A DNA stretch of 64,000 bases from Clostridia bacterium (GCA_017518295.1 JAFWVJ010000012.1:338010-402009), one strand, 5' to 3'; positions 1-13,802 are shown, counted from the first letter of the stretch. Numbers and translations are program-made. The notes: generated from the letters alone by a model not told the origin.

Positions 1-99
1 TATTTCTACTATTATCTATTTTTAAAAAGAGAACCAATAAAACACCATCTAATGAGATTAAAAGAGCTCAAAAATACTTAAATGATTTTTTGAAAGGAA

Positions 100-387
100 G
101 TGCTGAAGATGAGTAAATATGAAACTTGGCATGAAGTAAAAAAAGAATTACGTATATCTAAAGAACAAGAAGCAGAAATCAAATTAGAAGAAGAACTAAT
201 TGAAGCTACAATTGCTGCAAGAAATAAGAAGCAATTGACTCAAAGAGAACTTAGCAAACGTACTTCAATACCGCAATCAACAATTGCAAGAATTGAATCC
301 GGACTAGTATCCCCTAAAATTCAGACATTAAATAAATTATTAATTGCAATGGGATATAGATTAAAAATAGTTGAAATGGATAAATAG
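100..387 (+). CDS. XRE-family helix-turn-helix DNA-binding protein (HigA/antitoxin-like, ~95 aa)
   Basis: ORF track; HTH core LTQRELSKRTSIPQSTIARIESG; followed by hairpin plus T-run. Confidence 0.6.
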   Translation: MLKMSKYETWHEVKKELRISKEQEAEIKLEEELIEATIAARNKKQLTQRELSKRTSIPQSTIARIESGLVSPKIQTLNKLLIAMGYRLKIVEMDK

Positions 388-395
388 GATATAAA

Positions 396-438
396 AAGCC
401 ACACCCATGCTTTGATGCTTGGGAGTGGCTTTATTATT
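396..438 (+). terminator. rho-independent terminator (also usable on minus strand)
   Basis: agccacaccca...tgggagtggct stem followed by ttattatt. Confidence 0.55.
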
Positions 439-499
439 ATGAAATATCAAAAGGGACTATATTATCTGTCACATTTTCATATGTAATACAACAATAAGT

Positions 500-1084
500 T
501 TATTCATAATACATCACTTTTCCGATTCTTTTAACATATGACTTTTTTGTGTTTTTATCAATATAATATAATTTTTTTGAATTATCCCATTTATAGCCAT
601 ATAATTTAAGTAATAGTTTAACATCATCTTTGCTTATTCTTAAAAGTCCTGCTAATTCGTTATGATTCCATAAATTTCTCTTGTATAAAAAATCCATCAT
701 CGCATGTGGATATGGTTTTTCCTTTTCAAAATATCTCTTAATAAAATCAATAAATGCTATAAAGCCACCAAATACTGATATAGCATTTATTATACTTCCA
801 ACCATTTCCCATACTTTAATCCAATCAATTAGAGTCGGCCCACCAGCTAGTGCAATCCCATATTCGATACAAATACAATTATTCTTTATATTATGTGTTT
901 TTATAAAATCATCAATTAAAATACTATCCAAATTTGCATTAAATCTTAATTGATTATTAATAATAATGTATGGTATTTCATTATTAATGAAGCTATTAGA
1001 ATAATAAACATAGTATCTATCATATGAAATTCCACATTGCGGTGCTCCAATCAACTCTCTAATTTGTTTCAAAGTAGATTTCAT
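500..1084 (-). CDS. hypothetical protein (194 aa), last gene of XRE/ImmA-Fic operon
   Basis: long ORF co-oriented and tightly spaced with upstream genes; hydrophobic segment GSIINAISVFGGFIAFIDFI; no recognisable motif. Confidence 0.4.
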   Translation of the reverse strand: MKSTLKQIRELIGAPQCGISYDRYYVYYSNSFINNEIPYIIINNQLRFNANLDSILIDDFIKTHNIKNNCICIEYGIALAGGPTLIDWIKVWEMVGSIINAISVFGGFIAFIDFIKRYFEKEKPYPHAMMDFLYKRNLWNHNELAGLLRISKDDVKLLLKLYGYKWDNSKKLYYIDKNTKKSYVKRIGKVMYYE

Positions 1085-1175
1085 ATTATATTCAATTTCA
1101 TAACATTCTGGCTTATAGTTTTTATCAATACATGATGATATAACATTTGAAGCCTAAATTAATAATTTCATTAAA

Positions 1176-2084
1176 TCATTCCTTCTTCATCATATCATAA
1201 TTCTCTTTTCCAAATTCACATGTATCGCCACAATCTATTAATCTGGGAATCCTTATCCTATCAAAACCTTCAATATCTAAATATGGTTCATAAATAATAC
1301 TCTTATGTAGCTGAGGATAACATATGGCATAACAGCCATTTACAAAATTGGAAACAATTATTCCATCTCCATATTCTATACTATTTCCAAATATTACACC
1401 TTCTCCAGGCAGCAGTGTTTGTCTTTTGAAAGTTTCAAAAAAGTATTCATTCGAATAAGTAAATCCATCTTTGCCATAATAACAATTAACCATGTTCTTC
1501 CCAACACTATCCGCATCAATATTTTTATTTAATACGTTTGAAAAGCAAAACTTGTCAAAACAAAACATGTTGTCTTCTTCAGACAAATCATTATCATAAT
1601 ACACATCCTTAATATTTTCATCAAGTCGCATGCTTTGAAAAGCTCTAAAACAATCTTTAACCCCTATCCAACATGAATCAACATCATTTAAAGTGCCGTC
1701 TTTAACTAAATACAAACCTTTATTTTTGTTATCAGCAAATGCAATTATAAAGTCAGTATCTTGATTATATTTGTTATTAATATCCAATGCTTTATTTACT
1801 ATTTCAGACAATGTAGATGATCCTCTATTTTCAATATAAGCTAAAAGTTCATTAAAATGTTCAACAATTCCAGCTGCACCAACACATAGATTTCTATTTA
1901 TAATTACATTTTTTATAATTCCATATTTATTGATTAAATTAGCGGTATCTCCAATTTTATTAAGCAACTGATCGGATATTTCACTATAATTAATCTTAGT
2001 ATCGGCCAATATATATAAATAATTATTAGTCTTTCTAGCAAATAAAAAACTCAAGTATTTGACCTCACTTCCTGTAATACTCAT
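1176..2084 (-). CDS. hypothetical protein (302 aa), Cys/Asp-rich C-terminal half
   Basis: long ORF in operon; no family recognised by eye. Confidence 0.45.
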   Translation of the reverse strand: MSITGSEVKYLSFLFARKTNNYLYILADTKINYSEISDQLLNKIGDTANLINKYGIIKNVIINRNLCVGAAGIVEHFNELLAYIENRGSSTLSEIVNKALDINNKYNQDTDFIIAFADNKNKGLYLVKDGTLNDVDSCWIGVKDCFRAFQSMRLDENIKDVYYDNDLSEEDNMFCFDKFCFSNVLNKNIDADSVGKNMVNCYYGKDGFTYSNEYFFETFKRQTLLPGEGVIFGNSIEYGDGIIVSNFVNGCYAICYPQLHKSIIYEPYLDIEGFDRIRIPRLIDCGDTCEFGKENYDMMKKE

Positions 2085-2129
2085 AGTGCAATAGTAATTT
2101 ATAATGCCTATAAAGTATTATAGTATTAA

Positions 2130-2531
2130 TTAATAATAAACTCTTTTAATCATTTCAGCTTCATTTTGATATCCTTTTTCCTCAAGTTTTTTTATAAACA
2201 CATCCCACGGCGGTATATTACTCATATAGGGTTTTCCCGGTCCAGAATACATACCTCCGCCAGGTCCTGTATACAGACCGCCACCTGGCCCTGAATATAA
2301 TCCACCTCCAGGAGCAGTTGATAATCCACCACCTGGTCCTCTATATAAACCACCACCTGGTCCTGTGTATAGGCCTCCGCCTGGTCCTGTGTATAGACCT
2401 CCTCCCGGTCCTGTGTATAAACCACCATTAGGTCCCCTATAAGCTCCACCACTTGGTCCTGTATATAATCCGCCTCCAGGAGCAGTTGATAGTCCACCAC
2501 CTGGTCCTGTATATTTATTTCTAGGCCACAT
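2130..2531 (-). CDS. glycine-rich protein with ~10 tandem GPGGGLYTGP-type decapeptide repeats and a short globular C-terminus
   Basis: translation shows (Y/S)(T/R/S)(G/A)P(G/S/N)GG(L/A/M)Y repeated; underlying 30-nt imperfect tandem DNA repeats; no signal peptide. Confidence 0.55.
   Translation of the reverse strand: MWPRNKYTGPGGGLSTAPGGGLYTGPSGGAYRGPNGGLYTGPGGGLYTGPGGGLYTGPGGGLYRGPGGGLSTAPGGGLYSGPGGGLYTGPGGGMYSGPGKPYMSNIPPWDVFIKKLEEKGYQNEAEMIKRVYY
2222..2521. repeat. 30-bp imperfect tandem repeat array (coding, within Gly-rich protein gene)
   Basis: repeated cctggtcctgtgtata(g/a)(g/a)cc(t/a)cc(g/a/t)cc units visible in sequence. Confidence 0.7.
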
Positions 2532-2543
2532 AATTTATTCCTC

Positions 2544-3899
2544 CTATTCTTCAAAAAACAAGTAGTTGTGTAATTCAGAAAGCGAATGTATTATTCTTTT
2601 TTCAACAAATACAATTAATGGAACATAATCGTTTTCTACATCAATCTTAGAAAGTGCATCCAAGTATTCTGCTTTTGATTCCTTATCCACATAAATCGGA
2701 GGAATTCTTTTAAGTCTAAACATCCAATTAAGCATTGCTCTTGATACTCTTCCATTTCCATCCGAAAAAGGATGAATTTTAATAAATCTATATATAAAAT
2801 ATATTACTCTTTCAATATATTCACTAGTTGAAAATTTATTAATATCCTTTATAAAAAAATCAAATTCTTTATCAAGCTTCTTCAATTCATCATCAATTTG
2901 CGAATATGAAATTGGTTGAATAGTACCACTTAATAATACTGCATCATTAGTTCTATAAAGTCCAGAATACTCAGGATAAGGAACATATGAATATAATAAT
3001 TTGTGTAATTTTTTGCATTTGTTGATTGAAAAACTCTCTTTTGTGGTTAAAACATATTTTTGCATTGTATAGTTTCCTAAAGTAAATACAATGCCTTCGT
3101 CTTCGATTTCAAAAAATTTACTCTTAATTCCATTGTACCTTAAATCCGTAAGTATATAAGGAACATCATTTTCATTTATTCCTTCTATGCGATTGTCATG
3201 ATAAATATAATCATTTAAAAATTTAATACCAGTTATTGAATTAAGATCTATCATACAATAGCTCATACTATTAATTGCATTTCCTATCAATAAGAAATCA
3301 TTAGTTGTTTTTATAAACTGCTTTCTTTTACTTTCCGGTTTATATTTTTTAATTCTATCATTAAGAGTATCATAATCTCCTTCAATGAATTTAAAATCGT
3401 AGGCTAACCTAAAAACACAACTTTGAAAACTTACACCAAAATATTCTGCAATATATGTAATAGATTCAAAAGAAATATATCCATTTTCATTCTTATAATA
3501 GTTATATAATTCTTTAACTTTAAAATCAGGCATTAAAAAGCAAGCTGCAAATCTATCTGCGAACTTTTCAATGCTACTATTAGAGTTTTTGAAACATTGT
3601 ATTTGAGCTATATCATTTTTTGCTTTTTTAATGTCTTTGACAAAATGACATAATTCGTGGGCAGCTGTAAATCTTTGTCTAGTCCATGGTCTATTCTTAT
3701 TAATACCTACAACAGTTACATTATCACTATCATTAATAATAATACCTTCTAAATCATCAAAATCAGAAAATGATATAACAACTTCATTGTCTTTTAAAAC
3801 ATTAAAAGGATCAATAGGGAATGAAATGCTGCCATTTTTCTTTTTAATTTTATTTAATTCATGTTTAGCTAGTTCATTAGGAGTTATAGTACCATTCAT
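2544..3899 (-). CDS. fusion protein: N-terminal ImmA/IrrE-family (COG2856) zinc metallopeptidase domain plus C-terminal Fic/Doc (AMPylation-type) domain
   Basis: HExxH motif AAHELCHFV in N-terminal half; Fic motif HPFSDGNGRVSR near C-terminus; adjacent to XRE regulator gene. Confidence 0.75.
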   Translation of the reverse strand: MNGTITPNELAKHELNKIKKKNGSISFPIDPFNVLKDNEVVISFSDFDDLEGIIINDSDNVTVVGINKNRPWTRQRFTAAHELCHFVKDIKKAKNDIAQIQCFKNSNSSIEKFADRFAACFLMPDFKVKELYNYYKNENGYISFESITYIAEYFGVSFQSCVFRLAYDFKFIEGDYDTLNDRIKKYKPESKRKQFIKTTNDFLLIGNAINSMSYCMIDLNSITGIKFLNDYIYHDNRIEGINENDVPYILTDLRYNGIKSKFFEIEDEGIVFTLGNYTMQKYVLTTKESFSINKCKKLHKLLYSYVPYPEYSGLYRTNDAVLLSGTIQPISYSQIDDELKKLDKEFDFFIKDINKFSTSEYIERVIYFIYRFIKIHPFSDGNGRVSRAMLNWMFRLKRIPPIYVDKESKAEYLDALSKIDVENDYVPLIVFVEKRIIHSLSELHNYLFFEE

Positions 3900-3904
3900 A
3901 TAAA

Positions 3905-4237
3905 TTATTTTTCCTTACTTTTATATTCGTTTTTAAGTTTTATAAGATTTAAAATCTCTTTTTTGTCTTTTTCACTTAGTTTTTTAAATCCTCTAGCAAA
4001 TGCAACCTCATGTTCATCTATCTTTGTATTATTAACTAACTCATCCATGCTAATATTATATAATTTAGAAAAATTCATTAGTTCATTAGCATCGATTTTT
4101 CTATTACCATTTTCAATTCTAAGTATAGCATCTCTACCAATATTAAGAATTTGTGCAACTTGTAATTGTGTAAGACCCAAATACTCTCTAGCATTTCTTA
4201 ATCTAATGCCAATCTTCTTGTAATCTAATTGTTTCAT
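3905..4237 (-). CDS. XRE-family HTH transcriptional regulator (ImmR-like partner of ImmA domain)
   Basis: LTQLQVAQILNIGRDAILRIENGNRKIDANEL HTH; 5 nt upstream of ImmA-Fic gene. Confidence 0.75.
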   Translation of the reverse strand: MKQLDYKKIGIRLRNAREYLGLTQLQVAQILNIGRDAILRIENGNRKIDANELMNFSKLYNISMDELVNNTKIDEHEVAFARGFKKLSEKDKKEILNLIKLKNEYKSKEK

Positions 4238-4360
4238 TTATAAACTCTCCTTTACATAATGCAAATATATTATATAACTATATGTTGAAATAGTCAACAT
4301 CATTTTTACTAATTAAGCCACTCCCTTGCCTCTCAGCAAAGGAATGGCTTTTATATTCTC

Positions 4361-4717
4361 TTATGGCTTACACACCTTACATGGTGTTAATCCCATACTT
4401 ATTGCTTGATCTAAAGTTATTTCAGTACATGAAGTCTTTAGATACCTACATCCTTCTTTATGATATTTCGTCCCTGTTTTCGTTCTATAAACAGTATCAC
4501 CTATAATAATACTCTTAAAATCTGTAACTCGTGAAACATTATTTGATGCACCAAGAAAAACACTACTATTATTAGAAGTGTTACTTCCTTTTACTTCTAA
4601 ATACTCAACCTTATTTTGTAATTCATTAATTATTTTTGAATTGTTGTATTGTAAATAACCTAGTAAGGATACAACAATAACAAATATAGTAATAATAGTC
4701 TTTTTCAAATAAAACAC
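4361..4717 (-). CDS. membrane-anchored small protein with C-terminal Cys motif (KYHKEGCRYL...PCKVCKP)
   Basis: N-terminal TM helix; C-terminal YHx3C...PCxxC putative metal-binding module. Confidence 0.5.
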   Translation of the reverse strand: MFYLKKTIITIFVIVVSLLGYLQYNNSKIINELQNKVEYLEVKGSNTSNNSSVFLGASNNVSRVTDFKSIIIGDTVYRTKTGTKYHKEGCRYLKTSCTEITLDQAISMGLTPCKVCKP

Positions 4718-4728
4718 CTCATTTAAAA

Positions 4729-6225
4729 CTATTTCTTTAGCAAATAATTTTTTAAATATAAAATTTCTTTTTTATAAAAAATCATACTTGAAATAAAATA
4801 GATTAATAAAATAATCAAAGAATATGTAATTCCAGCAATTATCCAGGAAAAAATAGAATAATCAACTGTAGGTATTAAATATAAACTAATGCAAATTCCT
4901 ACTAATGAAGAAACTCCAAATACTATAAATTTCTTTAAAAAAATACTTAATTTTCTATTAAGTATATGATTTTTTAGAAAATATACCTGATATATGGTTC
5001 TATAAGTCATTGCCACCAATGTACCAATTGCAATTCCTAATAATCCTAAATAATTAATTAAAACAATAGATACAGCAATATTTATAACAGCCTCTAAATA
5101 AGCTGGTATTTTCATCTTTTTAAACATATTAGCAGAATAAGCCAATGAAAGATGTGGGCTTTTTAAAACATACATTAATTCTGCTACCACTAAAACTATG
5201 CCAAATAGAGGCTCATAGTAATTAATATCAGTTATATTTTTAGTATATATCATTACAAAAGGCGTAATTAGTAATCCAGCGACAGTAAACAAAAATCCAA
5301 CAGCAAAAAAATTAAAGAATTCATATGTGTTAAATTTTTCATTTAATTCTTCGATATTTCCTTTGGCATATAAGTGTCCAATATTAGGCATTATGGCAGA
5401 GGTAATTGACTTAATAGTTTGTGTTAAGCCATTTACAACTAGCTTATATATTGAATAAACTGATACCAATTTTATGTCAGATAAAACTGTAAGTAGAAAA
5501 ACATCTGTGTTAGCATGTATAAAGTAAGCAATATTAATTGCAAAACCATCCCATCTTTGCTTAATAAGACTATTATCTTCTTTTAAAGATGAATCAATGA
5601 TAAAGTACTTTTTTATAAAATGATTAAATACAATTGGTTGAACAATATATAATAATGCGGAAATCATCTTTATAACATGAATACTTGGATAAATATACAA
5701 TGAAACAATTGCCAAAAATATATTTAAAACAAATATAATACTTTGAGTAAAAGAAACTATGTAAACCTTCTTGTCGGCATTTAATAACAATTTTAATGCA
5801 AGAGAAAAATGATACTGCATAAAAAGACCAAAAGACATTATTAATACCAATGTAATTAAATATATATATGAAAAAGATGTTTTTGCAATTAATGGATATA
5901 CAAAAGCAACAATTAAGCTATAAATTATAAATATATATGCAATTTTTCTAAAGAAATGCTTCGTAGTATTAAGAATTGAACTGATTTTACTATTGTCTTT
6001 ATTAAATAAAGGTTTGTAAAAAGCAGCCATAATAACCCCAGAAATGCCACCTTCTAATAAAGATATATAATTTAAAAATTGACCTACCGAAGAAACAAGG
6101 CCATTTACTTCAGAGCCAAAATTATTAAGTATCAATTTAGGCATAATGAAACCACTTAATATTGTTACGAATTGTAATATAAAATTTGAAATAATATTAA
6201 GTAAAACAACTTTATCTTTTTTCAA
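4729..6225 (-). CDS. wzx: oligosaccharide/polysaccharide flippase (Wzx/MOP family)
   Basis: ~500 aa, 12+ predicted TM segments, context in glycosyltransferase cluster. Confidence 0.7.
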   Translation of the reverse strand: MKKDKVVLLNIISNFILQFVTILSGFIMPKLILNNFGSEVNGLVSSVGQFLNYISLLEGGISGVIMAAFYKPLFNKDNSKISSILNTTKHFFRKIAYIFIIYSLIVAFVYPLIAKTSFSYIYLITLVLIMSFGLFMQYHFSLALKLLLNADKKVYIVSFTQSIIFVLNIFLAIVSLYIYPSIHVIKMISALLYIVQPIVFNHFIKKYFIIDSSLKEDNSLIKQRWDGFAINIAYFIHANTDVFLLTVLSDIKLVSVYSIYKLVVNGLTQTIKSITSAIMPNIGHLYAKGNIEELNEKFNTYEFFNFFAVGFLFTVAGLLITPFVMIYTKNITDINYYEPLFGIVLVVAELMYVLKSPHLSLAYSANMFKKMKIPAYLEAVINIAVSIVLINYLGLLGIAIGTLVAMTYRTIYQVYFLKNHILNRKLSIFLKKFIVFGVSSLVGICISLYLIPTVDYSIFSWIIAGITYSLIILLIYFISSMIFYKKEILYLKNYLLKK

Positions 6226-13225: not shown

Positions 13226-13519
13226 ATGATAATTAAAGCTTCTGCAAGTTTAAGAAATAAATATGGTGAGATTTCAAAACTAGCTCATAAGACCAATGAG
13301 CCTATTTTTATTACCAAAAATGGCGAAGGTGATCTTGTGCTAATGTCTATTGAAAAGTATGAGAGGTTGATGTCTGAAATTAAATTAATTCCTCATTTAG
13401 TAAGATCAGAAATAGATATCGAAAATGGTAACTATATTACTTATGAAGATTTCAAAAAAGAATTAAACGAAGAATATGAAGATAAAGTTGCCGAGGATGA
13501 TGAAAAATATGAAGTATAA
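13226..13519 (+). CDS. Phd/YefM-family type II antitoxin
   Basis: IFITKNGEGDLVLMSIEKYERL; overlaps start of RelE/ParE-like gene. Confidence 0.75.
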   Translation: MIIKASASLRNKYGEISKLAHKTNEPIFITKNGEGDLVLMSIEKYERLMSEIKLIPHLVRSEIDIENGNYITYEDFKKELNEEYEDKVAEDDEKYEV

Positions 13520-13802
13520 TGTTATCTTATCTAACTATGCTAAAGATAGTATTAAATCTTCTATTGATTATTATAAAACCATTAGTAACAAATATTCAGA
13601 TAGAATTTTAAACTCTGTTCAAAAATGCATAGAAAGAATATCTGAATTTCCAATGATTTATAGAACATTTGATACTAACCCTATTTATAGGCAAGCTGTT
13701 ATTTTAAAAAAATTCGTATTAATATATACAATTAATAATGATAGTATAATAATACATTATTTTTTGGAAGGTACTAATGACTTTGCACCTTTAATAAAAT
13801 AA
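13510..13802 (+). CDS. RelE/ParE-family type II toxin
   Basis: MKYNVILSNYAKDSI...RQAVILKKFVLIYTINNDSIIIHYFLEG; probable start ATG 13510 rather than ORF-track 13476. Confidence 0.7.

Follow-up and report, generated by a model that had tools for sequence, protein, structure and literature searches.

We analysed 64,000 nucleotides (nt) of one strand from an uncultured Clostridia metagenome-assembled genome (GCA_017518295.1, JAFWVJ010000012.1:338010-402009; hereafter the window), in which five minus-strand genes encode an XRE repressor, a fusion of an M78 (ImmA/IrrE-type) metallopeptidase to a Fic domain, a Gly/Tyr-repeat protein, a proteasome-like protein and an orphan of 194 amino acids (aa). 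An earlier note on this DNA had claimed five minus-strand open reading frames (ORFs), and all of them are present where it placed them (Table 1), at intergenic distances of 5, 12, 45 (75 to a likelier TTG start) and 91 nt. The same arrangement was found in 24 of 24 contigs of this species, checked through the flanking HigA gene, and a search through that gene for an "empty site" or an alternative arrangement found none among the 24. The subject of this work is the cassette formed by the first two of these genes, joined in one clade by the third.

A metallopeptidase fused to a Fic domain

The second gene, labelled "ImmA/IrrE family metallo-endopeptidase" at NCBI (MBR3280617.1), encodes two domains in one chain. 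The N-terminal half matches Peptidase_M78 (2.6e-18, residues 60-165) and the PADLOC capP profile (1.2e-28, residues 11-166); profile or sequence searching of the PDB with this half gave no match, and its structural kinship emerged from fold comparison. The C-terminal half matches Fic (8.7e-14, residues 291-393) and the PADLOC Fic candidate PDC-S04 (3.7e-20). An AlphaFold2 model of the fusion, built from 67 sequences, was confident, with a predicted local distance difference test (pLDDT) of 88.8 and a predicted template modelling score (pTM) of 0.87. Significant profile matches, for this protein and for the XRE protein described below, thus bear out the XRE, ImmA/IrrE and Fic domains and motifs that the earlier note had read.

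The peptidase residues H81, E82, H85 and E111 are invariant in all 67 fusion sequences, which argues that the M78 domain is not vestigial. CapP consists of a peptidase domain, a helix-turn-helix (HTH)-like linker and a GAF domain, and in a third of CapP proteins a Cys "switch" lies on a strand over the active site (bioRxiv 10.1101/2022.04.27.489752). A Cys, a candidate for such a switch, is found between H85 and E111 in each of the 67 fusions, on strand 98-103 of the model. The capP profile aligns over just positions 5-151 of its 242, and the C-terminal half of the fusion has a Fic fold and no GAF-like domain; the Fic domain stands in place of the GAF domain of CapP/IrrE.

Human FICD is the nearest relative of the Fic half by sequence (1.6e-13). 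The stretch YIYHDNRIEG of the fusion aligns with HIYHTVAIEG of FICD, which includes TVAIEG, the inhibitory motif of class II, so that the class II inhibitory helix is present in cis, N-terminal to the Fic core, and is not supplied by a separate antitoxin. N236 and E239 are found in 67 of the 67 fusions, and G or N at position 240 in 66; the first position of the motif, D235, is Asp in 66 of 67 and not Ser/Thr. Conservation of the catalytic motif is equally high, with H376, F378, G381-R384 and R387 in all sequences and D380 in all except one. Matches to named Fic families are weak: the NCBIfam SoFic model (NF046030) scores 24.6 bits against a cut-off of 550, the PADLOC SoFic model covers residues 286-441 only, and VbhT matches at 5.5e-5.

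A probably autoregulated repressor with a candidate cleavage site

The first gene of the block encodes a protein that matches HTH_3 of Pfam (1.8e-10) and the PADLOC capH profile (1.6e-12, residues 6-104), and whose top solved relative by sequence is the DNA-binding domain of ImmR from ICEBs1 (7e-8). The 110-aa protein is an ImmR/CapH-type repressor, with an N-terminal HTH and a C-terminal helix carrying FARGF. Among 59 distinct XRE partners of the fusion, the most conserved stretch, exceeding the HTH itself, is FARxF..L...D..EI..LI..K (residues 80-103), in which every marked column is at least 80% conserved. CapP cleaves CapH at F82/R83, within the opening helix of the C-terminal domain by which CapH dimerises (bioRxiv 10.1101/2022.04.27.489752). 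Because FARxF is the most conserved part of the partners and has roughly the same residue numbers as the CapH cut site, we predict that the XRE protein is cut at FA/RGF (the slash marking the scissile bond) by the peptidase half of the fusion. The XRE sequence holds no inhibitory-Glu motif of the class I Fic antitoxin type.

When upstream regions were aligned for loci whose XRE has at least 57% identity, a palindrome emerged, ATGTTGA-N5-TCAACAT, which is strictly kept in 20 of these 26 loci, once per locus, 50-72 nt before the XRE start. The palindrome over the -35 hexamer, followed by the -10 hexamer TATAAT, is retained while the flanking DNA is unrelated between loci. Its perfect form occurs a single time in the 64-kb window, and no second operator copy was seen in the window or in the available flanks of the other loci. 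The site TTGACT-17-TATAAT is the top-scoring promoter-like site in positions 1-5000; the scan overall did not exceed chance, and we give the site weight because it is conserved together with the operator. Together these results are strong in-silico evidence for autoregulation by the XRE repressor at this promoter.

Co-transcription of all five genes is plausible locally in this genome, because there is one promoter with its operator and no internal terminator; folding of two internal gaps in the block revealed no significant structure. The hairpin upstream of the promoter has arms of 15 nt with 87% complementarity, and the hairpin at the far end of the block is likely a terminator that also serves the convergent HigA gene.

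Table 1. Features of the five-gene block and its flanks, in window coordinates.
Feature	Position	Strand	Remarks
XRE repressor gene	4237..3905	minus	110 aa
F80-A-R-G-F84 codons	3986..4000	minus	predicted peptidase recognition/cleavage site
M78::Fic fusion gene	3899..2544	minus	451 aa
CapP/ImmA/IrrE-like Zn-metallopeptidase and helical linker (residues ~1-190)	3330..3899	minus	HExxH, E111, Cys102
HExxH (HELCH, residues 81-85)	3645-3659	minus	peptidase active site
Cys102 codon	3594-3596	minus	candidate CapP-like switch Cys
FICD-like class II Fic domain (residues ~215-451)	2547..3257	minus	inhibitory and catalytic motifs
Inhibitory motif D235-N-R-I-E239-G	3180-3197	minus	aligned to FICD TVAIEG
Catalytic motif HPFSDGNGRVSR (residues 376-387)	2739-2774	minus	fits HxFx(D/E)GN(G/K)RxxR
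Gly/Tyr-repeat gene	2531..2130	minus	133 aa; clade-specific third gene of the module
Predicted proteasome-beta-like N-terminal nucleophile (Ntn) hydrolase gene	1176..2054 from TTG; ORF up to ATG 2084	minus	292 aa (302-aa ORF 2084..1176)
Orphan 194-aa protein gene	1084..500	minus	one predicted membrane helix
Promoter-like site TTGACT-17-TATAAT	4269..4297	minus	11/12 matches; the XRE start codon follows after 32 nt
Predicted operator, perfect 7-5-7 palindrome ATGTTGA-ctatt-TCAACAT	4282..4300	minus	overlaps the -35 hexamer
Hairpin	4315..4350	minus	ends the upstream 118-aa gene and sets the module promoter apart; -26.5 kcal/mol, z -6.4
Hairpin followed by U5 on the minus strand	392..433 (about)		-22.9 kcal/mol, z -6.6

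The repressor and the fusion travel as a cassette

Of 8000 candidates scored in a protein search with the fusion, 829 matched at E<=1e-3. Both Pfam domains are present in nearly all of the best 120 relatives (43-69% identity, mostly metagenomic), and more than 110 protein clusters at 90% identity, again mostly from metagenomes and including the human gut, have both. About 100 fusion loci were gathered from genome look-ups, a metagenome scan and a viral scan, the two scans using an alignment of the N-terminal (M78) half as query; a viral scan with the single fusion protein as query gave no match. Matches of genome contigs to the full fusion alignment (L001-L080) were discarded, being not orthologues but generic Fic proteins drawn in by the HPFxDGNGR pattern. 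We found no description of an M78-Fic fusion in the literature searched.

In nearly every fusion locus the gene immediately upstream, on the same strand, encodes an XRE homologue; its identity to the XRE protein of the window is 34-70% and tracks that of the fusion across loci. The sites of insertion are unrelated, with modules found for example at ruvAB-queA-tgt/leuS, in a polysaccharide cluster and at polC. Three full fusions were found in IMG/VR contigs, and a 31%-identical fusion lies on a phage-like plasmid of Bacillus pumilus, between a lysis cassette and an integrase, with a separate ImmA gene on the same plasmid and HTH regulator genes near. The pair of XRE repressor and fusion is thus real, conserved and non-classical, the last as the earlier note had said of the fusion, and its varied sites, prophage-like contigs and plasmid carriage show that the fusion is not the common housekeeping family that the same note had allowed for. 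The plasmid copy comes from a cultured organism, B. pumilus FUA2119 (NZ_CP154914.1, 4594-6329); its M78::Fic protein has 467 aa, and its gene overlaps an upstream gene for a 111-aa protein with no detectable likeness to the XRE protein of the window (E 0.2).

Downstream genes were compared in the 62 complete fusion loci whose sequence extends past the fusion gene. A single family recurs there, that of the Gly/Tyr-repeat gene, and it does so in one clade; 18 loci have no nearby downstream ORF on the same strand, and the others carry unrelated genes. Neither the 292-aa nor the 194-aa gene is found in any other fusion locus. Conserved cargo, sought by clustering of downstream ORFs and by a Pfam/PADLOC census of neighbours, was not detected. 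Because the XRE and fusion genes recur from locus to locus and the repeat gene is limited to a clade, the conserved unit is two genes, or three in that clade, and it moves as a cassette. The earlier note's view of the five genes as one functional unit is not supported: only the repeat gene recurs downstream, and the 292-aa family is found elsewhere without XRE or Fic. The neighbourhood survey that the note had proposed for ImmA-Fic fusions, carried out here with Pfam and PADLOC on 143 neighbours from 35 non-redundant loci, gave a heterogeneous picture of recombinases, polysaccharide genes, transporters, PDC-S01/DUF4143 ATPases and type I methyltransferases, in which defence content is modest.

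A Gly/Tyr-repeat protein follows the fusion in one clade

The third gene contains a 24-nt tandem repeat of 10.5 copies (2263-2514). Its 133-aa product, 32% Gly with 14 Tyr, has a head MWPRN, about 12 units of xGPGGGLY and a tail PYMSNIPPW..F.K.LE..GY. Homologues share a WPRN head, from 1 to about 11 xGPGGGLY units (65-145 aa in all) and the tail PYMSNIPPWPVF.KELE.RGY. Besides the window, where a gap of 12 nt separates the two genes, a homologue stands directly after the fusion gene in 12 loci and three partial loci, with an overlap of 1-29 nt, and the fusions of these loci are 50-62% identical to that of the window. Within the species, 133-aa and 109-aa forms coexist, and all changes in unit number are in frame. 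Copies that illustrate the variation are those of the window (2263-2514), L088 (2345-2674) and L106 (6829-7026).

Relatives of the repeat protein also occur in four proteobacterial prophage-like contigs, in which no match was found by similarity to the fusion of the window. Their units read STSQYGGM, MGPGGGLS, TGAGGGLS or YTGPGGGM; Tyr is not universal in the family, yet no unit lacks a hydroxyl residue. This weakens the idea of the repeats as specific sites of Tyr AMPylation, because there are proteobacterial relatives with Ser/Thr units and no Tyr, and beside them similarity to the fusion of the window detected no Fic gene. We hypothesize that the repeat protein modulates the Fic domain; SoFic has been described as an abortive-infection toxin with a small antitoxin, AS1, encoded downstream (PMC12249575). 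As a side observation, one proteobacterial relative (L198, 2847-5459) is divergent from a gene for a 383-aa XRE-M78 fusion and from a DUF4411 gene, a second and independent link of the repeat family to an M78 peptidase, seen in a single case.

The two distal genes are separate neighbours

TTG 2054 is the most likely start codon of the 302-aa ORF, which would then encode 292 aa: GAGG lies 8 nt upstream of this codon, and 8 of 9 homologues begin with MSF or MSY at the equivalent position. Both distal proteins are labelled hypothetical at NCBI, and neither has a match in Pfam, NCBIfam, PADLOC or PHROGs. The earlier note had found no recognisable family for either, and no Pfam family exists for them; the 292-aa protein, on the other hand, has a clearly recognisable fold. 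Fold comparison of its predicted structure identifies it as a Ser-nucleophile, proteasome-beta-like Ntn hydrolase with the alpha-beta-beta-alpha fold of the beta subunit and an extra C-terminal beta-rich domain. PDB profile or sequence searching with the family gave no match. PF00227 does not match the protein of the window and matches 1 of 62 relatives, at 1.5e-3.

An exhaustive profile search gave 588 representatives of this family (50% identity) at E<=1e-3, of which 290 at E<=1e-10. Among the 156 sequences listed, 147 start with M-S/T/C and 129 have a Ser nucleophile. Across 62 diverse members D18, K48 and G62 do not vary; they are equated with proteasome Asp17, Lys33 and Gly47 by their order and spacing. 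TPR repeat families were matched by 8 of the 62 members scanned (for example P0144, P0159 and P0177). Several members reach 360-500 aa, which suggests partner-binding variants. The FAR of MSFLFARK, at the N-terminus of the 292-aa protein, was rejected as a site for the peptidase, being not conserved (family consensus MSFxYAxK).

We examined three contexts of 292-aa homologues, two defence islands and one mobile element: MqsA/SocA with nSTAND3; restriction-modification, GmrSD and CBASS; and a relaxase on one side with MobC/NikA on the other. None lies beside an M78::Fic gene, and a scan of viral contigs for the family found none. Many proteasome homologues, including FC1-FC5 of Firmicutes, have been catalogued without function or context (Fuchs, Alva, Lupas 2021, PMC8665760). 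The 292-aa protein belongs to a large, uncharacterised family whose members were seen on their own in defence islands and mobile elements.

The sole match of the 194-aa protein among 5.8 billion proteins is its own cluster, making it a species-level orphan; a membrane helix is predicted at residues 94-116, with a Kyte-Doolittle maximum of 2.0 at 94-112. The 292-aa and 194-aa genes are separate neighbours and not conserved parts of the module, and here they may ride on read-through transcription.

Other genes around the block

The HTH gene at 100-387, which the earlier note had called an orphan HigA, has a partner: a Gp49/HigB-type toxin gene overlaps it and starts past the edge of the window, which is why the antitoxin looked orphan. 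Window positions 3-116 (frame 3) encode the last 37 residues of this 120-aa toxin (PF05973), and longer contigs of the same species show the HTH gene overlapping the complete 120-aa gene (PF05973). The HigB/HigA-type pair thus occupies window positions 1-387 on the plus strand, with the antitoxin gene at 109-387 overlapping the toxin C-terminus at 3-116. A Phd/YefM antitoxin and ParE toxin pair lies at about 13226-13802 (plus strand; Pfam labels taken from a contig of the same species, L086 98-674), so that HigBA, Phd/ParE and the Fic cassette form three toxin-antitoxin-like modules around one polysaccharide cluster.

Upstream of the module, across a strong hairpin, lies the gene for a 118-aa protein (4361-4717, minus strand) with a hydrophobic N-terminal stretch and a Cys-rich C-terminal motif, YHKEGCRYL...PCKVCKP. 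Its match in PHROGs is to the C-terminal end of phrog_14556 (2.2e-9). In other loci, two hydrophobic proteins of about 120 aa (L121 7418-7771 and L090 9387-9749) have N-termini that look alike by eye (MYxLxSxINxFIR...NPFE). The L121 gene comes directly after a fusion gene and is followed by that of a 132-aa protein with an N-terminus that is TIR-like by eye; the L090 gene lies in a defence island with a 292-aa homologue.

A proposed switch and its alternatives

We consider it somewhat probable that the cassette is a self-contained, autoregulated and mobile stress switch or toxin of the Xre-COG2856-toxin type, in which the protease is fused to a Fic toxin. The XRE repressor, presumably as a dimer, would bind the palindrome over the -35 hexamer and repress its own operon. 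The N-terminal half of the fusion would be a latent zinc peptidase, held off by the strand that bears the Cys switch. A signal, which analogy suggests to be single-stranded DNA, DNA damage or infection by phage, would lead the peptidase to cut the repressor at FA/RGF; the operon would then be derepressed and more fusion protein made. The Fic half would serve as effector by AMPylating a cellular target and halting growth, and the result would be abortive infection or a toxin-antitoxin effect. In its clade the Gly/Tyr-repeat protein, whose translation is coupled, would most likely act on Fic as an antitoxin or as a competing substrate. In favour of this proposal count the conservation and spread of the pair, the single operator per locus over the -35 hexamer, the conserved FARxF, the invariant catalytic and inhibitory residues of the Fic half and downstream genes and neighbours that differ between loci; the Xre-COG2856-toxin prediction and SoFic are precedents.

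Several observations weigh against this proposal. The inhibitory Glu, which in FICD favours de-AMPylation, is invariant in the fusions, and the domain may therefore not be a simple toxin. CapH/CapP is usually divergent from the operon it regulates; here the genes run in one direction and conserved cargo is absent. The repeat protein has relatives that exist without Fic, some of them without Tyr. Furthermore, defence genes among the 143 neighbours amount to 3-4 type I methyltransferases and 3 PDC-S01.

The same invariant Glu would fit a cassette that is a pure stress-responsive regulator, with Fic as a regulatory or sensor domain that replaces GAF; by binding nucleotides or by reversible (de)AMPylation it would control the peptidase or the repressor. 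The Fic domain does occupy the GAF position, and the pTM of 0.87 suggests a fixed two-domain arrangement. We nevertheless judge this unlikely, as the full catalytic motif is invariant and a regulator that governs only itself, with one operator per locus at its own promoter and no conserved cargo, is hard to explain. Rather less likely still is a single system of all five genes, in which an ImmR/ImmA-like switch drives downstream effectors as CapH/CapP does with CBASS. The absence of the 292-aa and 194-aa genes from every other fusion locus speaks against it, as do the 18 of 62 complete loci without a nearby downstream same-strand ORF, the species-level orphan status of the 194-aa protein and the occurrence of the 292-aa family without XRE or Fic near CBASS, restriction-modification and nSTAND genes and a relaxase. 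In favour of such a system are the position of all five genes on one strand between two strong hairpins, no significant structure in its internal gaps, a single operator and promoter, an identical arrangement in all 24 contigs of the species, and a 292-aa family that inhabits defence islands elsewhere.

We regard as very improbable a classical type II toxin-antitoxin pair, in which Fic is neutralised by XRE binding directly to it, a mode proposed for "mobile mystery proteins A/B" and Xre-Fic pairs, and M78 is vestigial or cuts something else. No M78 catalytic residue varies among the 67 fusions, and the inhibitory helix lies in cis and does not come from a partner. The NCBIfam mob_myst_B model does match the fusion, weakly (1.9e-8), at a score of 34, far under its cut-off of 124, and Makarova et al. 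(PMC2701414) recorded 22 instances of Fic/Doc-xre pairs. A bolder proposal, to which we give little credence, would make the cassette a new, self-contained immunity or addiction module, with a stress-activated CapP-like protease and a FICD-like AMPylase/de-AMPylase in one chain; the hypervariable repeat protein, with one hydroxyl residue in every 8-residue unit, would be a multi-site substrate or buffer that sets the threshold or timing of Fic toxicity, and the 292-aa gene would belong to a separate standalone defence-island family.

Comparison with known systems

If the proposed protease-toxin switch is right, the fusion would clearly exemplify, in nature, a toxin carrying its own antitoxin-specific protease, and repressor cleavage of the ImmA/CapP type would be joined to Fic AMPylation in one protein. 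The fusion family is common, unstudied and reaches phage-like and plasmid records, and the module is directly testable through the predicted operator ATGTTGA-N5-TCAACAT and cleavage site FA/RGF. A side result is the large, functionally blank proteasome-like family with its 588 representatives at 50% identity. Like HslV, Anbu, BPH, connectase and FC1-FC5 (PMC8665760), the 292-aa protein has the Ntn fold of the beta subunit with the nucleophile right after Met, an invariant Asp 17 residues past it, an invariant Lys and an invariant Gly. It differs from these homologues in its mostly Ser nucleophile, about 14 extra residues before the Lys, and some 100 aa of additional beta-rich domain at the C-terminus; 8 of the 62 members scanned also carry TPR repeats.

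The Fic half shares with FICD/HYPE, C. difficile Fic, BT_2513 and SoFic the motif HPFxDGNGRxxR, an inhibitory helix in cis and a Glu aligned to TVAIEG. It differs from these class II proteins in having an N-terminal M78 peptidase where they have TPR or winged-helix domains, and Asp in place of Ser/Thr at the first inhibitory position; falling far below the NCBIfam cut-off, it is not a SoFic equivalog. In the class I systems VbhT/VbhA and FicT/FicA the inhibitory helix is on a separate antitoxin, whereas here it is in cis. SoFic with AS1 (PMC12249575) resembles the three-gene form of the module in pairing Fic with a small protein encoded directly downstream, a likeness drawn from its description and not from the AS1 sequence; here that protein is a hypervariable Gly/Tyr repeat limited to one clade.

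Closest to the repressor-peptidase pair are CapH/CapP (Lau et al.), the top PADLOC matches, in which an XRE protein with a C-terminal oligomerisation helix lies beside an M78 peptidase, a conserved Cys sits on the strand after the HExxH helix, and F-x-R occurs near the CapH cut position. CapP carries a GAF domain where the fusion carries Fic, and CapH/CapP lies upstream of, and on the opposite strand to, the defence operon that it regulates, whereas the module shares its strand with its downstream genes and with the gene upstream, and has no conserved cargo. ImmR/ImmA of ICEBs1 and phi105 and DdrO/IrrE of Deinococcus follow the same logic of a repressor with a COG2856 peptidase. The gene order, repressor then peptidase on the same strand, is shared as well, and the ImmR domain is the closest solved relative of XRE. 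Both systems lack the extra enzymatic domain that the peptidase has here. Furthermore, the cassette differs from ImmR/ImmA in not being the lysogeny or excision switch of its element, the B. pumilus phage-like plasmid having a separate ImmA gene.

Three-component Xre-COG2856-toxin systems were predicted by Makarova, Wolf and Koonin in 2009 (PMC2701414), in which we found no mention of an M78-Fic fusion. The module resembles them in that a single mobile operon, patchy in its spread and present in phages too, unites a repressor or antitoxin with a dedicated protease and a candidate toxin. In the predicted systems the RelE and PIN toxins are encoded by separate genes, whereas here the Fic domain is fused to the protease.

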